Shown piece by piece: positions 3,913 through 64,000 of a stretch of DNA of 64,000 nt (position 1 is the first letter of the stretch; each line of letters starts with the position of its first letter). The DNA comes from Patescibacteria group bacterium. Its GTDB lineage: Bacteria > Patescibacteriota > WWE3 > UBA101185 > UBA10185. The translations under genes were made by a program, and so were the position numbers. The notes under the pieces are model-generated. The model saw only the letters and a program-made list of their open reading frames with translations, was not told the DNA's origin and made no database searches. Location of the stretch: NCBI GenBank assembly GCA_018825365.1, contig JAHJEV010000001.1:57601-121600 (forward strand). The letters run 5' to 3'.

Positions 3913-4329
3913 TTATCTTTTTCTTACACCTTTGAAATATCTCTTCTTTATCTTTTTTGCTTCGTCCTCCAATGTTTCCGCAAAATCCTGAATCTTATCC
4001 ATCACGGGACCTTTTTCCTTTTCTATGGTCTTTTCAATTTCTGAGATTTTTTCCTTTGCAGATTCGATATAAGGATCGGCTTTTTGTTTGTACTGCTGAT
4101 ATTTAACCTTTGCTTTTCCAGCCTCATTTTTGGCTACTACCAAAGCATCTTCTCCTTTTACCTTGTATTCCTTAGCCAGTTTTTTGAGTTTTTTCCTTGT
4201 CTCCTCTCCTTTATCTGGTGCAAAAAGCAGCCCCAAAATCCCTCCTATTACAACACCCCATGTAACTCCCTTAAAGAAGGTATCCCCGCTATGGTATCTC
4301 GGGTATTTTCTTTCCTCTGATTTTTTCAT
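3913..4329 (-). CDS. YtxH/DUF948-like small membrane-associated protein
   Basis: 138 aa. 'GVVIGGILGLLFAPDKGEETRKKLKKL' matches the YtxH-type N-terminal helix plus 'APksGketR' pattern. The rest is lysine-rich coiled-coil. Confidence 0.4.
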   Translation of the reverse strand: MKKSEERKYPRYHSGDTFFKGVTWGVVIGGILGLLFAPDKGEETRKKLKKLAKEYKVKGEDALVVAKNEAGKAKVKYQQYKQKADPYIESAKEKISEIEKTIEKEKGPVMDKIQDFAETLEDEAKKIKKRYFKGVRKR

Positions 4330-25002: not shown

Positions 25003-27300
25003 TTATTCCGGGTTGATTGAAAAATTCTCGGCATCCGCGGCCTTGATTTGAAGCTGAAGTGCTTTGATCTCACCCTTGGTTGTCTTTAGCGTAATCACTC
25101 CGGCAACCTTAATCTTGTCCCGCCTCTCACCGTTGAGAAAGTCAAAAACATCCGAATCCAATTCGTCAAATGTCCAAACGTTAGTGTCGATACTCGGCAG
25201 GTCATAATCTGTGTCAAAAAAGTAAACCACGGGCAGATAGGGCTCCTCAGGATCCTGATCAGTGATTTCGATCAACACGCCCTGAACACCATCGCCGTGA
25301 ACATTTTTGATGTTGCGTGCGAGAACAACATCTTCCTCGACCTCGGTGTATTCGATGGCGTATTGCTCCGTATCTTTGGTATCAATTTCGACCTTTACCA
25401 ACTTTGCAGACCCGCCGTAGTCAACAATATCGACGAACCTTAGCGACTTGGTGGACCCCGGATCCTTCATCGCTTCGCACAAGTCTGTGTCTATTTCTGT
25501 GATATCCACTTCCTCGAACGACTCAGAAGATCTGCTTAAATCAACGGTTTCCCCATCGAAAAGGTACAATTGATCGGAGTACTCTTTATTCACAGGCTGT
25601 TTGGTAATCACAAGGACAAAGCCTTGGATATCATCACCATATTTTTCCTTCAGGACACGCTCGATCATAACACTATCATCAACTTCTTCTCCCTCGATAT
25701 CGAATATGTTGCACGCGTCGTCCGCGGTGATTTCAACCACCAGCAACCTGACTCCATCGCCCAGTGTTTCTACACCCACAATCTTGGCACGATTTTGATA
25801 GTCGGTTCCCATGAGGAATTCCTCAAGTGATGAGAATGTTCCATCCAGGCTTTGATCATCATGAGTGGAGTCGATATTTTCAAGACCACTTATGTCTTCT
25901 CCCTCGAATGGAAACACAAGATCGTTGTAGTCGATGTCTTTGGGCTGGTCTACGATCCTCACGTACACGCCCTGTACCTCATTTCCGTATTGCGCACGGA
26001 TTTTCCGCTCAATGATCTCGCTGTTTTCCAGCTCCTCGCCTTCAATACCGAAACGATCCGCGTCGTCAGCTCGGATATGGACTTCAAGCAGTTTTGAGAC
26101 ACCAAGGTATGTTATGATTTCTGCAAAAACCACCTCGGGCCGTTCCTGCTCACCACGGAAAATTTCTTCCAAGTCAGAATCCGACATGTTGTCGAGCTCG
26201 CGAATGTGAAATTCAGTACCTGAAGCTTCTAGGGCATCCAATGCCTGCACTGTCTCCTCATCGAAGGGATAGACTTCGTCTGGGTAGCAGTAGTTGTCAG
26301 GGACGTCAATGATTTTGACAACAAGTCCCCGAACTGACGAGTTCCTTGCTAAGATTTCTCGGACACGTTTTACAACGACCGCACTGGTCTCGACTTTCTC
26401 GTACGGAAGGTCATATTCCTCAGCCGCTTCTACATCTATTTCGATCTTCAGTAGCTGCACAACGTTTGCAAAGTTGACCAGTCCGACGATTTTCGACAGC
26501 GCCGGTGTATCTCCAGTGAGAAGAGCGTTTGTCAGTTCGTGAGGCATATCATCAAAGCTGCGGAGATTTCCAGGATCTTCAACTTTCCGAAGCCTGTCAT
26601 CGGTCTCCGTATTGAAGGTATAGATCTGCGGAAGATAGACCACAGTATCAGGAAAACCTGTTACAACAAGGACTACGCCCTGAGTCTGCGAACCATATTT
26701 CCTTCGCAGTTTTCGGGAAATGCGGGTAGCCTCGTCCTGGTATTCCGGCAAGATGTCAAAAAGTTCGGCATCTTTGGCCTTAATACGAATCTCCAGAAGC
26801 AAAAAATTACCAACTCGCGTAGTTCCAAAGTCCTGTGCGAGGGTTTCGCCCTGATTGATAACGGTTTCGTCCCGTCTTTCTAGCATAGCTGCTAGTTCCG
26901 GATTAAGATCGGCCATTCTTTCTACATCATACTCGGTGAATCCTCCTTGTAAGCCCGTAGACCTTGGTGTACCTCCAAAAAGGTAGATTCTCGAGCGGTA
27001 TGACTCGTCTTCAGGCACATCGGTAATCGTAACCAAAATGCCTTTTACAAAGTTGCCGTACTTAGATGTGATGGCAGATACCACTGTCGAGATACTCGCG
27101 AGATTGCTGCTAACCACCTTTTTAATGGCGAAAGCAAACAGTCTTGCTAACACAAACGCTGGAAACGCAAACAGCAAGAACAGCACAAGAAGGGTTTCAG
27201 CAGTTACCTTCACGATCTCCCTTCCCACTAAGAACGCCAGAAATGCGTACACTGTCAGTACCAGCGTTCCGACGACAAGTAAAGTACTAAGTTTCTTCAT
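25003..27300 (-). CDS. Membrane-anchored acidic tandem-repeat protein (6 x ~115-aa repeats), unknown function
   Basis: 765 aa. Two N-terminal TM helices. A repeated module appears at least five full times plus partial copies. Each module has a core 'LL.VEI.A.DAE.F.IEGEE...IERKIR..YG..VQGV.V.I.D.P...Y.D.VY.FD.E'. Coding GC is about 50% against a roughly 35% background. AAGGAG RBS. Confidence 0.6.
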   Translation of the reverse strand: MKKLSTLLVVGTLVLTVYAFLAFLVGREIVKVTAETLLVLFLLFAFPAFVLARLFAFAIKKVVSSNLASISTVVSAITSKYGNFVKGILVTITDVPEDESYRSRIYLFGGTPRSTGLQGGFTEYDVERMADLNPELAAMLERRDETVINQGETLAQDFGTTRVGNFLLLEIRIKAKDAELFDILPEYQDEATRISRKLRRKYGSQTQGVVLVVTGFPDTVVYLPQIYTFNTETDDRLRKVEDPGNLRSFDDMPHELTNALLTGDTPALSKIVGLVNFANVVQLLKIEIDVEAAEEYDLPYEKVETSAVVVKRVREILARNSSVRGLVVKIIDVPDNYCYPDEVYPFDEETVQALDALEASGTEFHIRELDNMSDSDLEEIFRGEQERPEVVFAEIITYLGVSKLLEVHIRADDADRFGIEGEELENSEIIERKIRAQYGNEVQGVYVRIVDQPKDIDYNDLVFPFEGEDISGLENIDSTHDDQSLDGTFSSLEEFLMGTDYQNRAKIVGVETLGDGVRLLVVEITADDACNIFDIEGEEVDDSVMIERVLKEKYGDDIQGFVLVITKQPVNKEYSDQLYLFDGETVDLSRSSESFEEVDITEIDTDLCEAMKDPGSTKSLRFVDIVDYGGSAKLVKVEIDTKDTEQYAIEYTEVEEDVVLARNIKNVHGDGVQGVLIEITDQDPEEPYLPVVYFFDTDYDLPSIDTNVWTFDELDSDVFDFLNGERRDKIKVAGVITLKTTKGEIKALQLQIKAADAENFSINPE

Positions 27301-27413
27301 GTCTCTCTCCTTTTATATGGGATATGTAAAAGAGACTCTACTACGGGTTAATTTGCTTGTCAAACCTGTTTTATATGGTTAAATTTGTAGCGGGGTATTT
27401 GTGAGCTTATAGT

Positions 27414-27442
27414 TTGACAAACAAACTGGCATATGTTATAAA
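27414..27442 (+). promoter_or_regulatory. Promoter of the nfeD-flotillin operon (TTGACA-N17-TATAAA)
   Basis: TTGACA 27414-27419, 17-nt spacer, TATAAA 27437-27442. A mirror-image TTGACA for the divergent gene sits at 27358-27363 on the minus strand. Confidence 0.45.
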
Positions 27443-27495
27443 TCACGTTAACAATAAGGGAGCAATCCCATACTCATGTAGAAAAGGAGAGAACT

Positions 27496-28062
27496 ATGAT
27501 ACTTTCGTGGATTTTTGCTGGACTGATGATCCTTGGAGGCAGCTTTTTTGTATTTAGCCTGCTCCTCGGAGGCGTTGGAGACTCGCTCGGGGATATGTTT
27601 CACGGGCTTGATTCAGCGCTTGAAAGCATCGGGCTTGACTTAATACCTGACAGTTTCGAACACGGCTCGGGAGGCGCCGGATGCATTACCATCCTGGCCT
27701 TCATCACTGGGTTCGGAGCTGCTGGCTTGGTGGCATCATTATTCGGCGCGAACGCTTTAATTTGCGTTTTGGCCGGGATTCTATTTGGTGTCATCGTCGG
27801 CGGAATTTACGCTGGGATCACTAAACTGATCATGAGTCAGCAATCAAATTCGTCAACTACCGATGCAGACATAGTCGGCAAGACAGCGCATATAACGGTC
27901 GAAATACCGAAAGGCGGTGTCGGACAAGTAATGCTGACTACCCAAGGCGGAACCCGCCCCTACCCGGCCTGTTGTGTAAATAACCAGGCGGTCGTGAGAG
28001 GGCAATCCGTAAAAGTCATCTCTGTGGAAGGAGGCAGGTTATACGTAGAAAAAGTTGAGTAA
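27496..28062 (+). CDS. nfeD: NfeD-like membrane protein (short form, C-terminal OB-fold)
   Basis: Glycine-rich TM helices. C-terminal 'KTAHITVEIPKGGVGQVMLT...GQSVKVISVEGGRLYVEKV' is a beta-barrel. Sits immediately upstream of an SPFH gene. Confidence 0.7.
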   Translation: MILSWIFAGLMILGGSFFVFSLLLGGVGDSLGDMFHGLDSALESIGLDLIPDSFEHGSGGAGCITILAFITGFGAAGLVASLFGANALICVLAGILFGVIVGGIYAGITKLIMSQQSNSSTTDADIVGKTAHITVEIPKGGVGQVMLTTQGGTRPYPACCVNNQAVVRGQSVKVISVEGGRLYVEKVE

Positions 28063-28118
28063 ACTTTTACCGTAAGCTACCTCAATCATATTCAACTCTA
28101 GATAAAGGAGAAGGTTCT

Positions 28119-29633
28119 ATGGATCTAACTGGATTACTTCCTACGATCGCATTGGTGGTAGGAATCATTGTCGTACTCCTGGTAGCGTTCTTTGCAATTT
28201 CCAGGGCTACGCGTCTCTATCACCGTGTACCTCCCAGCCAAGTGCTGGTTGTCTTCGGACGTGGTAAAACACAGTTCGATGCAGACGGAAAACAGGAAAA
28301 GACCGGCGTACGTTTCATCACCGGTGGTGGCGGCGTAGTGCTTCCAATTCTGGAAGAATGCACCACTATCGACCTGACCGTAATGACGATTACACAGAAC
28401 AAGGACCGAGTGTATTCGACCGACGGTGTTGCTGTCAACCTCGATTGGGTTGCACAGGTGAAGATAGCTGAAGATCAGCATTCACTCGCAACAGCCGCGC
28501 GTACTTTCCTGGGAAAAAGTACGAACCAAATTGTCCAGGTGATTACCGAAACCCTTTCGACGAACTTCCGGGCCATCGTGGGCCAGATGACTGTTGAAGG
28601 CGTGCATCGTGATCGCGATGCCTTCGTCCAGGCTGTCCAGAAATTGGCAGCGGATGAAATGACGGCCATGGGTGTGCGGATTATTTCCATGGGAGTCAAA
28701 GAGATCACCGATGACCTCGGTTACTTTGAAGCAATGGCTGCTCCGAAGATCGCTGAAGTGATGCGCGATGCCAAAATCGCTAAATCTTTGGCCGACCAAG
28801 CTGCCCGCGAACAAGAGGCAAAATCTATGTTGACCGCTCGTGAAGCTGAACTTCACACTGATGAAGTTATCGCTCAGAAAGAACGCGATGTTGAGCTTCA
28901 GAAGGTCGATAAGAATAAGCAGGTCGGTCTCGCCCAAGCAGACGCGGACAAAGAAGTGCAAACCAAAAAGGCTCTGGCCGTTGCACAACAACAGGAAGCC
29001 GAAGTACTGGTTCCTGCTCGCGCTGCCAAGGAAGCTGTCGAGATCAATGCGAATGCGGCAAGGTCGAAGACAGAAACAGAAGCTGACGCAAATGCCTATT
29101 CGAAGAAGACAGCAGCTCAGGCTGAAGCCCAAGCTGTAACACTCACCGGACAGGCTACAGCCGATGCCAATAAGGCAAAACTGTTTGCTGAAGCTGAAGG
29201 CACGAGGGCAAATCTTCTCGCTGAAGCCGAGGGCAAGCAGAAGATCGCTGAGGCCACCGCCGCCGAAGGTGAAGTTAACCTTCGTCAGTTTGTTGCGGCT
29301 GAGCTTATCAAAGCTCAGCAGGCAACTGGCATTGCTTTTGCTGCTGCCATGGGCCAGATTGGTGAAAACGTCAGGATCGTTCAGATTGGCGATATTCCAG
29401 CCGAAAAGAACGGACTTCTCGGTATACTGCAACAGGCCCCGCTCATTGCTGTTCAGCTCAACGAGCAAGTCAAGGCCCTCACCGGCGGTATGTCGATCGA
29501 ACAGGTTCTTACACAGGTTGCTGGTACTCTCAAACTGGCTGGGAAAACCCAAGCAGATGTTAAGACACCGAGTAGCAACGAAGAATCTGCCGCTGACATT
29601 TCTGGAAAGAAAGGTAAGAAGCTGACAAAGTAA
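28119..29633 (+). CDS. floT: Flotillin-like SPFH/band-7 protein
   Basis: N-terminal TM helix, an SPFH domain, then long Ala/Glu-rich coiled-coil with 'AEAEG' repeats typical of flotillins (FloT/YqiK). 504 aa. Confidence 0.8.
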   Translation: MDLTGLLPTIALVVGIIVVLLVAFFAISRATRLYHRVPPSQVLVVFGRGKTQFDADGKQEKTGVRFITGGGGVVLPILEECTTIDLTVMTITQNKDRVYSTDGVAVNLDWVAQVKIAEDQHSLATAARTFLGKSTNQIVQVITETLSTNFRAIVGQMTVEGVHRDRDAFVQAVQKLAADEMTAMGVRIISMGVKEITDDLGYFEAMAAPKIAEVMRDAKIAKSLADQAAREQEAKSMLTAREAELHTDEVIAQKERDVELQKVDKNKQVGLAQADADKEVQTKKALAVAQQQEAEVLVPARAAKEAVEINANAARSKTETEADANAYSKKTAAQAEAQAVTLTGQATADANKAKLFAEAEGTRANLLAEAEGKQKIAEATAAEGEVNLRQFVAAELIKAQQATGIAFAAAMGQIGENVRIVQIGDIPAEKNGLLGILQQAPLIAVQLNEQVKALTGGMSIEQVLTQVAGTLKLAGKTQADVKTPSSNEESAADISGKKGKKLTK

Positions 29634-43744: not shown

Positions 43745-44695
43745 TTATTCCACTAACTTATTTACCAAATTTTCCATCTTATCTTTAGTATAAAGACCAG
43801 TATCTGTTCCTGCTACTTCTATTTCACCTCTGGCGTTAACAACCCCCCAGGCTAGCGCTTCTCTTAGAGGTCTTTTGTGAAATATTGCCGACACAAAACC
43901 CGATGAGAAAGCATCCCCAGCTCCGGTTTTATCAACAACCGGCCGTCCATCATCATATGCAGTAAGACTTACGAGATTTTCCCCATCAAACGCACTAACA
44001 CCTTTTTCGCCATCGGTTATTACGGTGAGTTTTGGTCCTAACTTTTGCAAGTCAATGTGTATTTGCGGAAGTGGTTTTTCTCCGACAATTTTTGCGGCCT
44101 CTTCCATATTCAAGATTAAAATATCGGTAACTTCCATGAAGCTTTTTAGTGATTCAACACCGGCTTTTAGCTGGTATGTACCGGGATTAAAGACGATTCC
44201 CACACCCGAATTTGATTTAATATATTTAATTAGTTCGTCCTGAAAACTCTGAAACCCATCTCCAATTGAAGTGTAGTAGAGAAGTTTGGGTTTTTCCCAA
44301 TCCCTTACCATGTAATTTCTTTTTCCGTGGTAGGAGAAGATTGTTCGTTCCTTGTTATAAACAATGATTGAGTGAATATCAGTCGTAGTGGCAGCATTTT
44401 TTACGCAGTATCTTGTATCAACTCCAAGTTTCGCCAGTTCTTTAATTATTCTTTCTCCGTTTTCATCATCTCCGATTTCAGTATAAATCGAAGTTTTAAG
44501 ACCCAGATAGTTGCAACCAATACCCACATTTACCGCGTTTCCGGCAATTGATGTTGTAAGGCTTTCAACTGGTATTTTTGTGCCGTGAACAAAACATATT
44601 TCTGAATCACCAGAGGTGGTTACCTTTTCATCAACCGTGTTTACGTGCAGCGTTATATCTATTGACGAATCTCCTATGGTTAGAATGTCACTCAT
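43745..44695 (-). CDS. PfkB-family carbohydrate kinase
   Basis: C-terminal 'DKTGAGDAFSSGF' anion-hole motif. N-terminal GG motif region. 316 aa. Confidence 0.75.
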   Translation of the reverse strand: MSDILTIGDSSIDITLHVNTVDEKVTTSGDSEICFVHGTKIPVESLTTSIAGNAVNVGIGCNYLGLKTSIYTEIGDDENGERIIKELAKLGVDTRYCVKNAATTTDIHSIIVYNKERTIFSYHGKRNYMVRDWEKPKLLYYTSIGDGFQSFQDELIKYIKSNSGVGIVFNPGTYQLKAGVESLKSFMEVTDILILNMEEAAKIVGEKPLPQIHIDLQKLGPKLTVITDGEKGVSAFDGENLVSLTAYDDGRPVVDKTGAGDAFSSGFVSAIFHKRPLREALAWGVVNARGEIEVAGTDTGLYTKDKMENLVNKLVE

Positions 44696-45687
44696 ATTTT
44701 CTCCATATTTTTTAGAAACTTATAAACCTTATCTTCTATATGATGGGCGCTAAGACCGTATTTGTCTTTAAGCTCCTCGTATTTTCCGGACTCTAGAAAA
44801 GTGTCATTGATACCTATTCGAAGCAGCGGGAGGGGATTTTTATCGCTCAAAAGCTCGGCTATTGCTCCTCCCAGCCCCCCGTTTATTTGATGCTCCTCGA
44901 CAGTTACTACGCATTTTGTTTTTTTAACGCTTTGTAAAATTGTTACCTCGTCCAGGGGTTTGATTGTTGGACTTGAGATTACCTCCGCTTCTATTTTGTA
45001 CTTTGCTTTTAGATGTTTTGCAGCAAGTAGCGTCTCATATATTATTGGTCCGCAGGAAATTATTGTGACATCTTTTCCCTCTATGAACACATCCGCTTTT
45101 CCTATTTTAAATAGAGTTTCCCTGGTTGTGATTAATGGTGTTTCTGCTTTTGAAAATCGAAGATACACGGGGCCTTTGTGTTTTGAAATTTCAACAACTG
45201 CTTTTTGTGTTTGATTAGAATCAATTGTGTTTATAACTACCATGTTTGGCAACACTCGCATTGTTGCGATGTCTTCAAGAGGCAGGGCATTTGCTCCGTC
45301 AGGAGCGTTTGATAATCCGGCGTGGGATCCGCATATCTTAACATTCGCATTTTGAAGACAAACAGAGAGTCTTATTTGATCCCAATTTCTTGTAGTGGTG
45401 AATATTGCGTGAGTTGCAACAAACGGGATTTTTCCTGACATCGAAAGACCGGCGGCTATTCCCATCATATTTTGTTCGGCAATACCGCAATGTATGAATC
45501 TTTCGGGATATTTTTCCATGAACCCCCCAAGTCTTACTGAATATGATAAATCGGCGCCAAGAACTATGATGTTTTTGTTTATGGCCGCCGCATCTAAAAC
45601 TCCCTCTCCAAAGCCGTCTCTTGAAGCTTTGAGTTTAACATCACTACTGAATATATCTTGATCAAGTTTGATTTTTTGGTTCAGCAT
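44692..45687 (-). CDS. Transketolase, C-terminal (pyrimidine-binding) subunit
   Basis: Pyr-binding and C-terminal domains ('ERFIHCGIAEQNMMGIAAGL'). Split-type transketolase. Confidence 0.85.
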   Translation of the reverse strand: MLNQKIKLDQDIFSSDVKLKASRDGFGEGVLDAAAINKNIIVLGADLSYSVRLGGFMEKYPERFIHCGIAEQNMMGIAAGLSMSGKIPFVATHAIFTTTRNWDQIRLSVCLQNANVKICGSHAGLSNAPDGANALPLEDIATMRVLPNMVVINTIDSNQTQKAVVEISKHKGPVYLRFSKAETPLITTRETLFKIGKADVFIEGKDVTIISCGPIIYETLLAAKHLKAKYKIEAEVISSPTIKPLDEVTILQSVKKTKCVVTVEEHQINGGLGGAIAELLSDKNPLPLLRIGINDTFLESGKYEELKDKYGLSAHHIEDKVYKFLKNMEKI

Positions 45688-45705
45688 TGGGCAGCGAAGA
45701 AGTAA

Positions 45706-46239
45706 TTAATTGCATTCTAAAGTTTTTGTAACCTTATCAAATCTTATATCCCAATCGGTTTTTGATAGAGTTATAATGTCAACAGCGACGTTCATACCCG
45801 GTTGTGGTGTGCATATATCTCCAGGCACTGTCTCTTCAACTAAAACAAGAAGTCTCTTTTTGGCCTTTTCTTCATAAACTTTTCTTATTTTTACCTTTAC
45901 CCCCTTAAACTCATTAGTGTCTGACGTCGCGGCAATTACCACATCATTGTCGAAATTAATATTTTCTTGTACCTTCAGCAGACCACTTTCATCAATAGAA
46001 TTTAAAAATTCATTTAGTTGTTCGTTTGTGGTAATAACCTCTCTTCGTTTTTCTAACTGTTTTGTTGTGGTAACTGTAGTGGGGAAGTCGGTCAGCCTTG
46101 TGATTGTCGGTTCTTTGTTAAAGTTTGGTAATTTTATTTCGTCTTTAAGAAGAAAAGACCCCACTCCCAATATCAGAAGTATAATGATTGCCAGAGGGAT
46201 CAAACTTACGTTTAATACTGCTTTTTGTTTTTCAATCAT
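45706..46239 (-). CDS. Hypothetical membrane-anchored protein inserted between the transketolase halves
   Basis: 177 aa. N-terminal TM helix. Overlaps the stop of the upstream transketolase N-terminal subunit gene by 8 nt. Confidence 0.35.
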   Translation of the reverse strand: MIEKQKAVLNVSLIPLAIIILLILGVGSFLLKDEIKLPNFNKEPTITRLTDFPTTVTTTKQLEKRREVITTNEQLNEFLNSIDESGLLKVQENINFDNDVVIAATSDTNEFKGVKVKIRKVYEEKAKKRLLVLVEETVPGDICTPQPGMNVAVDIITLSKTDWDIRFDKVTKTLECN

Positions 46240-47098
46240 AAAGTATTTTACCTTTCAAAGTTTTTAGTTCTTCCAGCGCGGTTTTCGCCTCTTTGGAATT
46301 GGGAGCTATTCCGTGCCATCGAAAATCGTTCTCCATAAATTTTACACCCTTACCGGGTATCGTATGTGCAATTATAGCAGTTGGACGCTGTGTTATGGTT
46401 TTTGCCATATTAAATGCACTTATGATCTCAGCTATGTTGTGTCCGTCTATCTCAATTACAAACCAATTGAAACTCTCAAGCTTCTCTTTAAGGTTTTCCA
46501 GCGGCATTACATCTTCGGTATTTCCGTCACTTTGAATATTATTTCTGTCTATGATCCATGTGATATTGTTTAGTTTTTTGTTTGGGGCAAACATTGCGGC
46601 TTCCCACACCTGTCCCTCATCTAGTTCTCCGTCTCCTGTCATACAGTAAATTCTGTAATTTTGTTTATCCATTTTTGCTGCTAATGCCATGCCTATAGCC
46701 TGGGAGAAGCCTTGTCCTAAAGAGCCGCTTGTATTTTCGATTCCGGGAACAGTTCCCAAAACAGGGTGCCCCTGAAGTTTGGAATTAATTTTTCTCAATG
46801 TCCAAAGCTCCTTTTCAGGAAAAAACCCTCTGTGTGAAAGAGTGGCGTACCAGATCGGAACTATGTGTCCATTTGATAGTACAAACCTATCCCTGTTTTT
46901 CATATTTGGATTTTGAGGGTCTATGTTGAGAGTGTGAAAGTATAGGGCAGTAAAAATCTCAGCAGTTCCCAAAGATCCTGCTGTGTGTCCGGTACCGGCT
47001 TCCAGAAGCATATCCACAACAAGTTGTCTTAGTTTGTTAGCAACTTGATAAAGTTTTTCAGTATCCAAAACAGGTTCTTTTTTTTGGGATGTGGGCAT
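46232..47098 (-). CDS. Transketolase, N-terminal (TPP-binding) subunit
   Basis: 'GHTAGSLGTAEIF' and 'GDGELDEGQVWEA' are the TPP-binding motifs. Confidence 0.85.
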   Translation of the reverse strand: MPTSQKKEPVLDTEKLYQVANKLRQLVVDMLLEAGTGHTAGSLGTAEIFTALYFHTLNIDPQNPNMKNRDRFVLSNGHIVPIWYATLSHRGFFPEKELWTLRKINSKLQGHPVLGTVPGIENTSGSLGQGFSQAIGMALAAKMDKQNYRIYCMTGDGELDEGQVWEAAMFAPNKKLNNITWIIDRNNIQSDGNTEDVMPLENLKEKLESFNWFVIEIDGHNIAEIISAFNMAKTITQRPTAIIAHTIPGKGVKFMENDFRWHGIAPNSKEAKTALEELKTLKGKILYD

Positions 47099-47430
47099 TA
47101 AGATGAGTATAAAAGTTTTGGATTTTAATTACAAGAAATGTTTGATATTTAGCTCTTTACTTAAAATGTTCTAATGCAGGTGTTTGACTTTTGGGGATAT
47201 TTTCGGTAGTACTACCGTCGATAGGTGCACATGAAAGCTCGTCAGGTCAAATTAGACCCGCTCGGTTCAACGGTTTCTCTCCTTTTTAAAGTTGGACTGT
47301 TTTTACGAGCCAGTGCACCCTTCCTCCTCAAAGCGTGCGGTGAGTTGTCTGCCAAGGATGCTGTAATCATTGCCCCCCAGGTAGATACAACCTCTGCACG
47401 CTTCTTTTTATTCAACTGCTTCTGGGAAAT

Positions 47431-48027
47431 TTATTTTCTGTTCTTATCGAATTCTTTTAGGTAAGCCAAAACTTCTTCTGGGGTAGTGCATATTTTCAGT
47501 ATTTCTCTTTCTCCTATTTTTAGTATCATATTTCTTTCTATAGCGTCCAAAATGTCATTCCAAAAGCTTCCAAAAAGGATTATCGGTTTGCTGTTTGGTT
47601 CGTGTATCCATGAACTCACCCAGGTCATTCCAAACTCACTTAAAGTTCCAATACTTCCTTTAAATATGATGTGAACATCGGAAGTTTGAAGCATTACCTT
47701 CGTTCTATCAAAATAATCAAGAGTTATAACTTCAAAGTCAAAGTTATTGTCTAAAGCAACCCCCTCGTAGTGCCTCTTGGGTTTATTTGGATGGTAGGTT
47801 ACTGCAAGTGCTTTTGCACCTCCGGCATGAGCTCCGTTTGTTGCTGCATCCATGATTCCCGGACCACCCCCATCAACTATTTGGTATCCGTTTTCAGCTA
47901 AAAGTTTTGCGGTTTCAAAGGCTTGGATGTATGGTTCCTCGTCCATTTTCCAGGCAGCGCCACCCAGAATGCACACCGTTAATGGTTTTTTATCCTTTAT
48001 ATTGTTAATAGTTGCTACTTGATCCAT
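47431..48027 (-). CDS. LOG-family (TIGR00730) Rossmann-fold nucleotide-binding protein
   Basis: 'VCILGGAAW' and 'VDGGGPGIMDAATNGA' motifs. Start set to the internal Met (MDQVATINN), which leaves a 23-nt overlap with the rpe stop; the track ORF start at 48093 overlaps by 89 nt. Confidence 0.65.
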   Translation of the reverse strand: MDQVATINNIKDKKPLTVCILGGAAWKMDEEPYIQAFETAKLLAENGYQIVDGGGPGIMDAATNGAHAGGAKALAVTYHPNKPKRHYEGVALDNNFDFEVITLDYFDRTKVMLQTSDVHIIFKGSIGTLSEFGMTWVSSWIHEPNSKPIILFGSFWNDILDAIERNMILKIGEREILKICTTPEEVLAYLKEFDKNRK

Positions 48028-48679
48028 GGGCAGTTTTTGAAAATTCCCTATACTTTTCTTTGGGATTTTCTGAATTAAATATTGCAGAACCAATGACTAT
48101 ATTGTCAACTCTGGTGCTTAGTATCTGAGGTAGGGTAGTGTCATTTACCCCGCCATCTATTTGTATTGTTATAGAGGGATGCTCCTTTTTAAAGGCTGTA
48201 ATTTTTGGGAGTACTGCCTGAATAAAGCTATTTCCCTGCTTTCCCGGAACTATTGCCATGAACTGAGCAAAATCTATGTTTTCTACATAAGGGTTAATGA
48301 GTTTATTGTCTTGATCTGTGTTTATGGACACACCCGTTTTATACCCAAGTTTTTTTGCAAGTTTAATAAAAGTTTTCATTTGCAACGGATCTACAAGCTG
48401 GGTAAACACGGTACTCACATTCTTGATTTTTACTGTTTTGGAGGGAATAAACTTTCTATTCTTGTTTAAGAAATCAACTGGATTTATAACCATCAAATGT
48501 AACTGAAGTTCCGCTTGCGTCTCGATCTTATCCAGTTTTTCTATTTCCAGAAATGTTTTTCCATCAACAAGCTTGTCGTCAGCTATGTCTATTTGAATAA
48601 TTGAAGCCACGTTCTCAATGATTTTGATTTTCTCGACAACTTTTTCAAATGTGGGTTCCAATATAACTGGAATTATCAT
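48005..48679 (-). CDS. rpe: Ribulose-phosphate 3-epimerase-like TIM-barrel
   Basis: 'IIQIDIADDKLVDGKTF' and 'LHLMVINP' resemble the RPE metal-binding motifs (hlDvMDG / HLMV). Context with rpiB and transketolase supports the call. Confidence 0.65.
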   Translation of the reverse strand: MIIPVILEPTFEKVVEKIKIIENVASIIQIDIADDKLVDGKTFLEIEKLDKIETQAELQLHLMVINPVDFLNKNRKFIPSKTVKIKNVSTVFTQLVDPLQMKTFIKLAKKLGYKTGVSINTDQDNKLINPYVENIDFAQFMAIVPGKQGNSFIQAVLPKITAFKKEHPSITIQIDGGVNDTTLPQILSTRVDNIVIGSAIFNSENPKEKYREFSKTAHGSSSNY

Positions 48680-62067: not shown

Positions 62068-62221
62068 TTTAATGCTGAAGTACTATTCAGCTCTTGTACA
62101 TTGAAAATTTCCTTTGAGATTTTGAGTTTTCAAGATCATTAAGGCGAAAAGAACGGGTGCTTTGATGAATATCCCCTAACGCATTTGTGGATATTCATTA
62201 AAAGTAATTTAGCTTTTTATT

Positions 62222-63895
<1,674 letters not shown>

Positions 63896-64000
63896 AAAGA
63901 GAAAATTCGTTTTCTCTCCTTGGATTAGACAACTTAAGTATATTTATATGCTTAAGTGTCGGTCGGATGGGAGGAAAGTAGTTTCACCAAATAGGAATCT

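Follow-up and report, generated by a model that had tools for sequence, protein, structure and literature searches.

A probable small RNA gene with exposed anti-Shine-Dalgarno-like motifs between LOG-like and transketolase genes of a Patescibacteria genome

Transcription signals in the gap between the LOG-like gene and tkt

The 64,000-nt stretch of DNA analysed here (the window) carries two minus-strand open reading frames, for a LOG-like protein and for the N-terminal part of transketolase (tkt), which are separated by 332 nt (47099–47430). A preceding reading of the letters alone (the sequence-only reading) had described a gap of about 330 nt holding a block of roughly 190 nt at about 50% GC amid AT-rich DNA, and had proposed a small structured RNA, either a plus-strand sRNA or a leader or riboswitch of the minus-strand tkt operon. 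The measured base composition agrees with that description, the GC content in 100-nt windows being 0.46–0.53 across 47200–47400 versus 0.27 at 47050–47199 and 0.32–0.34 at 47400–47599. The signals described below led us to conclude, with high confidence, that the gap holds a predicted plus-strand gene for a structured sRNA, which is oriented divergently from tkt and convergently with the LOG-like gene (Table 1).

Relatives were gathered with the window tkt protein as anchor, and the syntenic LOG–tkt gaps were compared. The tkt relatives labelled Patescibacteria or candidate division WWE3 ranged from 100% to 87% identity and then from 78% to 69%, and 12 loci were analysed among the more than 100 listed tkt proteins with at least 70% identity. 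The assemblies are derived from SRR29054607, SRR26275510, SRR22387751 and SRR30681628 and from JGI 3300069122, 3300063114 and 3300062706. The gene order rpiB-rpe-LOG-gap-tktN-ORF177-tktC-PfkB was kept in 12 contigs of five lineages, in which the LOG–tkt gap measured 296–368 nt and had no gene called inside. These gaps comprise eight close homologs and four diverged positional counterparts in related Patescibacteria. Transketolase itself is split in the window into N and C halves (44692–47098), between which lies a conserved 177-aa ORF (45706–46239) with no Pfam or NCBIfam match, and this layout was common to all fetched relatives extending that far.

The TTGACT box pointed out in the sequence-only reading lies exactly where it had been placed, and the occurrence of a −10 hexamer at the same spacing in all 12 loci indicates that it is a genuine −35 element. 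TTGAC was constant in the alignment of close loci while the flanking bases varied. The −10 hexamer of the window is the poorest among the 12, the others reading TATCAT (three loci), TAGCAT (two loci), TAGGAT, TATGAT, TAGTGT, TACCAT, TAAAAT and TATAAT. The pair TTGACT-17-TAGTAC (47184–47212) is a predicted sigma-70-type promoter. A conserved GAUAGGUGC begins 7–8 nt past the −10 box in all eight close homologs, suggesting that transcription probably starts at G47220. At the other end, each of the 12 loci finishes in a hairpin with a T-run behind it, on the same strand. The second helix of the sequence-only reading, drawn between AAGCGTGC (47331–47338) and GCACGCTT (47396–47403) and followed by CTTTTTATT, was recovered exactly and showed compensatory changes in homologs; together with CTTTTT it forms a predicted intrinsic terminator. 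As judged from sequence conservation, a promoter and an intrinsic terminator bounding a predicted short non-coding transcript are present in 12 of 12 loci.

Table 1. Predicted features of the LOG–tkt gap and its flanking genes (window coordinates)
Feature	Position	Strand	Basis or remark
SLOG/LOG-like protein	47431–48093	−	ORF and domain search
Transketolase_N protein (tkt)	46232–47098	−	ORF and domain search
tkt promoter TTGTAA-17-TATACT	47134–47106, ATG 7 nt on (feature 47096–47134)	−	Promoter scan
−35 box TTGACT	47184–47189	+	TTGAC invariant in the alignment of seven close loci; TTGAC followed by T, C or A in 12/12 syntenic loci
−10 box TAGTAC	47207–47212	+	Exactly 17 nt past the −35 box; spacing kept in 12/12
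Predicted sRNA transcript, about 190 nt	47220–47409	+	Inferred 5′ end; 3′ end set at the U-tract
5′ domain (P1 47224–30/47313–19, P1b 47237–42/47305–10)	47224–47319	+	Closes a three-way junction
P2 hairpin GGUC/GACC, loop (C)AAAUUA(G)	47245–47258	+	Loop invariant in the alignment; stem covaries
P3 hairpin CGGUUCAAC/GUUGGACUG, 19-nt loop	47263–47299	+	8/9 pairs changed on both sides; 94.4% of cells pair
CUCUCCUUU, anti-Shine-Dalgarno-like motif in the P3 loop, putative seed	47277–47285	+	Conservation and predicted exposure
CUUCCUCCUC, second CU-rich single strand, interdomain linker	47320–47329	+	Unpaired in the MFE fold of the trimmed RNA
P4 long hairpin and U-tract, intrinsic terminator (predicted)	47331–47403 and 47405–47409	+	Conserved in homologs

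Fold, covariation and distribution of the element

On the plus strand, the segment 47190–47415 gave a minimum free energy (MFE) of −79.6 kcal/mol (z = −5.8), which was equalled by none of 200 dinucleotide shuffles; the minus strand gave z = −3.0. The nested long-range complementarity described earlier thus stands, with its helices kept in homologs. The pairing of GGTGCAC with GTGCACC had been placed exactly on P1 (GGUGCAC/GUGCACC), which is conserved with compensatory changes in homologs, and that of GCTCG (47237–47241) with CGAGC (47306–47310) falls exactly within P1b (GCUCGU/ACGAGC). In the covariation count, the first five pairs of P1 were paired in 97.5% of cells, and P1b in 93.8%, with both sides changed in five of its six pairs. 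The P2 stem occurs as CGGUC/GAUCG, GGGUC/GACCC and GGAUC/GAUCC around a loop that reads CAAAUUAG across close homologs, the P3 loop measures about 20 nt across independent folds of close homologs, and 9 of the 21 pairs of P4 changed on both sides, with 91.3% of cells pairing.

A covariance model based on nothing but the window sequence recovered eight loci at full length (E = 5e-71 to 1e-8), matched once in the window and found no other match in 236 kb. In the resulting alignment, which is fitted to the model and holds only eight related sequences, 91.9% of cells pair and both sides changed in 32 of 53 pairs, against 12.5±2.5 in shuffles (0 of 500 reached 32) and 1–9 in slid-partner controls. 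Covariation in the homologous gaps, which the sequence-only reading had proposed to look for, is seen in these eight sequences. Separate MFE folds of the eight close homologs led to the same helices P1, P1b, P2 and P3, the C/U-rich linker and P4, and RNAalifold on a plain MAFFT alignment recovered P1b, P2, P3 and P4, both sides having changed in 16 of 30 pairs; both results agree with the model-fitted alignment. Four helices other than the terminator carry compensatory changes. When the 5′ domain was aligned on its own with MAFFT, the 3′ strands of P2 and P3 came out misplaced, and that alignment was left out. The proposal of a small structured RNA is in this way upheld by promoter, terminator, covariation and z-scores together.

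Some further structural candidates were tried and rejected. The outermost helix of the MFE fold (UUGGGGA/UCCUCAA) is not conserved, shows no covariation and lies inside the promoter spacer, which places it outside the RNA. The strands of the three-way junction, inspected by eye for a hammerhead-like ribozyme core, are not conserved, and a pseudoknot between the P2 loop and P4 fails because its pairing is absent in the window and in locus L163.

The element was also compared with known RNA families. With Rfam 15, the whole window returned only 16S rRNA and a group I intron at gathering score, the region 47050–47500 returned only a spurious snoRNA match outside the element at E ≤ 10, and the eight homologous loci returned no match at E ≤ 1; ARAGORN detected no tRNA or tmRNA. 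The Rfam scan suggested in the sequence-only reading thus gave no family match to the element, and the failure of that reading to recognise SRP, 6S, TPP or RNase P by eye has its counterpart in an empty Rfam result even at E ≤ 10. 6S RNA has a rod-like fold with paired 5′ and 3′ ends and a large central bubble. Here the 5′ end pairs with nt ~97–103 of the trimmed RNA (47313–47319) and not with the 3′ end, the 3′ third forms a separate hairpin in all eight homologs, unlike the 6S rod, and no Rfam 6S match was found, so that 6S RNA was rejected.

As to distribution, the promoter, the terminator and the exposed motif were retained in all 12 loci, the motif either as CUCUCCUUU or with one or two bases changed. 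The four diverged lineages (L168, L169, L170 and L002) could be neither aligned nor detected by the covariance model, whose best score among them with filters off was a non-significant E = 0.55, at the right place in L168; their homology is argued from synteny, promoter, motif and terminator only. A search of the region against 80 genome loci with nhmmer gave no match, indicating that similarity is limited to very close relatives. Scanning genomes with the tkt anchor yielded two loci at 72–73% identity, L001 and L002, and the element was found in L002 only; at L001 (73% tkt identity), 66 nt (3935–4000) separate the upstream gene from tkt and the element is absent. Likewise, among 17 more distant CPR loci (L003–L008 and L081–L091) the gap upstream of tkt was at most 129 nt, except for 227 nt in L082, and no CU-rich motif was present. 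These observations suggest that only one clade carries the sRNA gene at all and, from L001, that at least one member of that clade lacks it or has it elsewhere. The metagenome scan with the tkt anchor gave no locus closer than 63%, a pattern scan of viral contigs gave no match, and contig P0116 (82% identity) ends inside tkt and does not cover the gap.

Exposed CU-rich motifs and the alternative readings

The motif CUCUCCUUU is the only segment retained across all five lineages. Ten of the 12 loci have it unchanged, the exceptions being L165 (UUCUCCUUU) and L002 (CACUCCUUA), and it lies 42–75 nt from the RNA 5′ end. Its bases are unpaired with a mean probability of 0.94 in the window RNA, and in 11 of 12 loci this probability exceeds the mean of the whole RNA. 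The linker CUUCCUCCUC is C/U-rich with a CCUCC-like core in all eight close homologs.

From these features we propose the following mechanism. Transcription would start about 7 nt past TTGACT-17-TAnnAT, near G47220, and would stop at the P4 hairpin and U-tract, near 47409. The RNA would fold into a 5′ three-way-junction domain, in which P1 and P1b close P2 and P3, and a 3′ terminator hairpin, leaving two C/U-rich stretches single-stranded, CUCUCCUUU in the P3 loop and CUUCCUCCUC in the linker. These seeds would pair with purine-rich Shine-Dalgarno sequences (SDs; AAAGGAGAG, GAGGAGGAAG) in a subset of mRNAs, and the pairing would occlude 30S binding. Trans base-pairing, the direction of the effect and the identity of the targets are what we infer from the exposed motifs. 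For the full explanation, an independent plus-strand sRNA gene with CU-rich seeds that pair with SDs, we judge the balance to tip slightly in favour, and anti-SD pairing taken as a mechanism in its own right is put forward tentatively, at somewhat below even chances.

Candidate targets were then considered in the window. The two best duplexes of the P3 loop with translation initiation regions (TIRs) coincide with the SDs of a divergent gene pair (27300 and 27496): a 14-bp duplex of −20.9 kcal/mol with the 765-aa ORF 25003–27300 (AAAAGGAGAGAGAC directly before AUG), and a duplex of about 12 bp and −18.8 kcal/mol with an NfeD-like gene. The 16S tail reached only −10.7 and −11.4 kcal/mol on these two sites, and when the flanks of the loop were shuffled around a fixed CUCC core, only 1.8% and 0.7% of the resulting loops equalled or beat those duplexes. 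The linker could in turn pair over 10–11 bp with the SD of a YtxH-like gene (−20.8 kcal/mol). Any anti-SD-like seed finds SDs, however, which makes the target predictions weak. Moreover, NfeD, flotillin and the neighbouring ORF have no close orthologs in the sRNA-bearing relatives, with one distant homolog only for NfeD, so they do not represent the conserved function, and any conserved targets must lie elsewhere in the genome.

The same region (25003–29633) merits a description of its own. The NfeD-like gene (27496–28062) is followed by a flotillin/SPFH gene (28119–29633), and the SD AAAAGGAGAGA is common to NfeD and the divergent 765-aa ORF. The nearest outside relatives of the NfeD–flotillin pair show about 53% identity, and those that are named belong to Anaerolineales or other Chloroflexi, which suggests that the pair was horizontally acquired. 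Pfam and NCBIfam searches of the 765-aa protein, of a 188-aa protein and of the small ORFs identified no families.

The motif also resembles the window's own 16S 3′ tail GGAUCACCUCCUUUCU, and in L161 it reads GGAUCCUCUCCUUUCU. CUCCUUU(C)U is common to the sRNA and the window tail CACCUCCUUUCU, and both would pair with AAAGGAG. The sRNA has CUCUCC where the rRNA has CACCUCC, which implies that its preferred partner would be AAAGGAGAG rather than AAGGAGGUG, and it is predicted to be a separate small gene that has a promoter to itself and precedes the rRNA operon by about 15 kb. This resemblance bears on the alternative that the plus-strand RNA binds or titrates a protein or the ribosome, for example as a 16S 3′-tail decoy, instead of pairing with mRNAs. 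Such a role, which we consider unlikely although worth weighing, would suit the likeness of the P3 loop to the 16S tail, the large size of the RNA with its conserved multi-helix scaffold, and the conserved P2 loop, which the seed model leaves unexplained. However, outside the close homologs the scaffold gives way to others and the CU motif alone persists, a combination that is typical for seed-driven sRNAs and unusual for protein-recognised folds, and no partner protein gene is linked to the element. A related and rather improbable possibility is that the sRNA is a mimic of the 16S 3′ tail, acting as a global brake on mRNAs led by an SD, a minority in this lineage, or as a decoy for a factor recognising that tail; as a brake, it would compete with the ribosome for SDs, including those of the putatively horizontally acquired NfeD–flotillin mRNAs.

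The 16S rRNA gene of the window (62216–63897) is itself split near its 3′ end by a group I intron (RF00028, 55 bits, 63588–63842), and the mature tail GGAUCACCUCCUUUCU lies past this intron, at about 63880–63895. In the spacer after the 16S 3′ end (63899–63925), a hairpin AGAGAAAAuucgUUUUCUCU is followed by CCUUGG, which makes a second copy of CUCUCCUU in the window.

On the question of strand, G·U or U·G combinations numbered 40 among the paired cells versus 11 for A·C or C·A, and the plus-strand z-score was more negative than that of the minus strand in all 12 homologs. This asymmetry and the z-scores, together with promoter and terminator, indicate that the plus strand is the functional one. 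It would be surprising, therefore, if the minus strand acted instead, through read-through from the LOG operon into a leader peptide or attenuator ahead of tkt, and we hold this for quite improbable. What speaks for it is that the minus strand has strong SDs (AAAGGAGAG, GAGGAGG) and that a tiny upstream ORF comes after each of them: AAGGAG, 8–9 nt and then UUG with an ORF of 5–9 codons occur in six of the eight close homologs, the mini-peptides reading MNRAGLI, MNQATI, MNQGV, MNQTA, MNQGI and MLNLSSALF, each before a stop codon, and the linker, read in reverse complement, likewise gives an SD with AUG or GUG after it. Yet the start codon is missing in L167, L168 and L170, the frame is long in L163, the peptides show no conservation and begin with UUG throughout; this reading would leave the conserved promoter and U-tract of the plus strand unexplained, and tkt is served by a promoter of its own, 7 nt from its ATG. 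An sRNA complementary to a TIR must moreover resemble a TIR on the opposite strand, so the SDs and UUG mini-ORFs can be read as the mirror image to be expected of an anti-TIR sRNA.

We give even less weight to the idea that the gap has no RNA function and is a spacer with the terminator hairpin of the LOG operon, or a small-protein gene, either of which appears very improbable. Only 28 nt separate the LOG stop codon from the P4 hairpin, which could thus terminate or stabilise the LOG mRNA, and stop-free frames of 55–79 codons exist. The compensatory changes in the four non-terminator helices and the conserved promoter argue against a spacer, as does the lack of a U-tract past P4 on the minus strand. 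No reading frame is conserved on either strand and the stop-free frames differ among homologs; between the window and its closest relative, indels of 1, 2, 1 and 2 nt shift and break every reading frame, indicating that the RNA is not coding, and Pfam gave no match for the two small ORFs in the gap.

The last alternative concerns the region immediately upstream of tkt. A stretch covering the tkt promoter with its 17-nt spacer, and some 12 nt above the −35 box (47103–47146), is near-invariant in relatives with 78–100% tkt identity. The promoter ends 7 nt before the ATG, which implies that the tkt mRNA is leaderless and has no 5′ UTR for a riboswitch. A TAnn(A/T)T box was found exactly 6 nt before the start codon in 14 of the 53 long ORFs of the window, versus 0–4 at other offsets, so that the first genes of operons appear leaderless. 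Hence it is hardly credible that the element serves the tkt operon as a cis-regulatory leader or riboswitch. Its place upstream of tkt is all that speaks for this, and a TPP riboswitch had come into view because transketolase uses TPP. Against it, the conserved promoter of tkt sits between the element and the ATG, 14 of 53 long window ORFs share this leaderless layout, no riboswitch family was found at E ≤ 10, the minus-strand fold is weaker, and the signals and fold of the element are on the opposite strand. Of the two options raised at the outset, the plus-strand sRNA was thus favoured by the transcription signals and the strand evidence, whereas the tkt leader or riboswitch was not supported, given the tkt promoter 7 nt from the ATG.

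Two observations may be added on these surroundings. The tkt promoter is far more conserved than the body of the sRNA, and a near-palindrome AAAAGTTTT in the promoter region (47103–47146) may be an operator. SDs in the window occur mostly on internal genes or on a few special genes.

Relation to known small RNAs

An independent plus-strand sRNA gene with CU-rich seeds is the reading that we carry into the comparison with known systems. To our knowledge, RNA-based regulation in Patescibacteria (CPR) is almost unexplored, and we found no sRNA described for Patescibacteria in the literature. The present element offers an sRNA family that is supported by covariation and has clear gene signals, a fixed address beside pentose-phosphate genes and a seed that mirrors the anti-SD. 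As the genome is largely leaderless in appearance, the sRNA could show how reduced organisms handle SD-led messages differently. It is a concrete candidate for metatranscriptome mapping and heterologous reporters, and it could seed a new RNA family model.

The C-rich sRNAs of Gram-positive bacteria occlude 30S binding by pairing with SDs. RsaE/RoxS and other Firmicutes sRNAs with C-rich seeds, such as IsrR, are like the present RNA in having their own promoter and intrinsic terminator and at least two unpaired C-rich loop or linker stretches complementary to SDs. They differ in that no sequence or structure match was found (Rfam, E ≤ 10), that the present RNA, which includes a three-way-junction domain, has about twice their length, and that its seed is CUCUCCUUU/CCUCC rather than CCCC, its host a member of the Patescibacteria and its targets putative only. 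The cia-dependent small RNAs (csRNAs) of Streptococcus, which measure about 90–150 nt and are driven by CiaR-dependent promoters, share with it an unpaired region between stem-loops that is complementary to both SD and start codon; in most homologs of the present RNA, CAU or CAC stands a few nt 5′ of the CCUCC-like linker. The csRNAs are shorter and depend on CiaR, whereas the present RNA has no Rfam match and carries its anti-start element inside helix P1. The 6C/B11 sRNA of Actinobacteria consists of two short hairpins of about 90 nt in total and likewise presents C-rich hairpin loops to G-rich ribosome-binding regions, but it belongs to another phylum and another scaffold, and Rfam gave no match between the two. 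With its predicted promoter and terminator, its fast-evolving scaffold and its fixed, exposed anti-SD-like seed, the element would by analogy fit among the C-rich-seed sRNAs that block ribosome-binding sites, and it is a previously undescribed RNA family of a known kind of sRNA.
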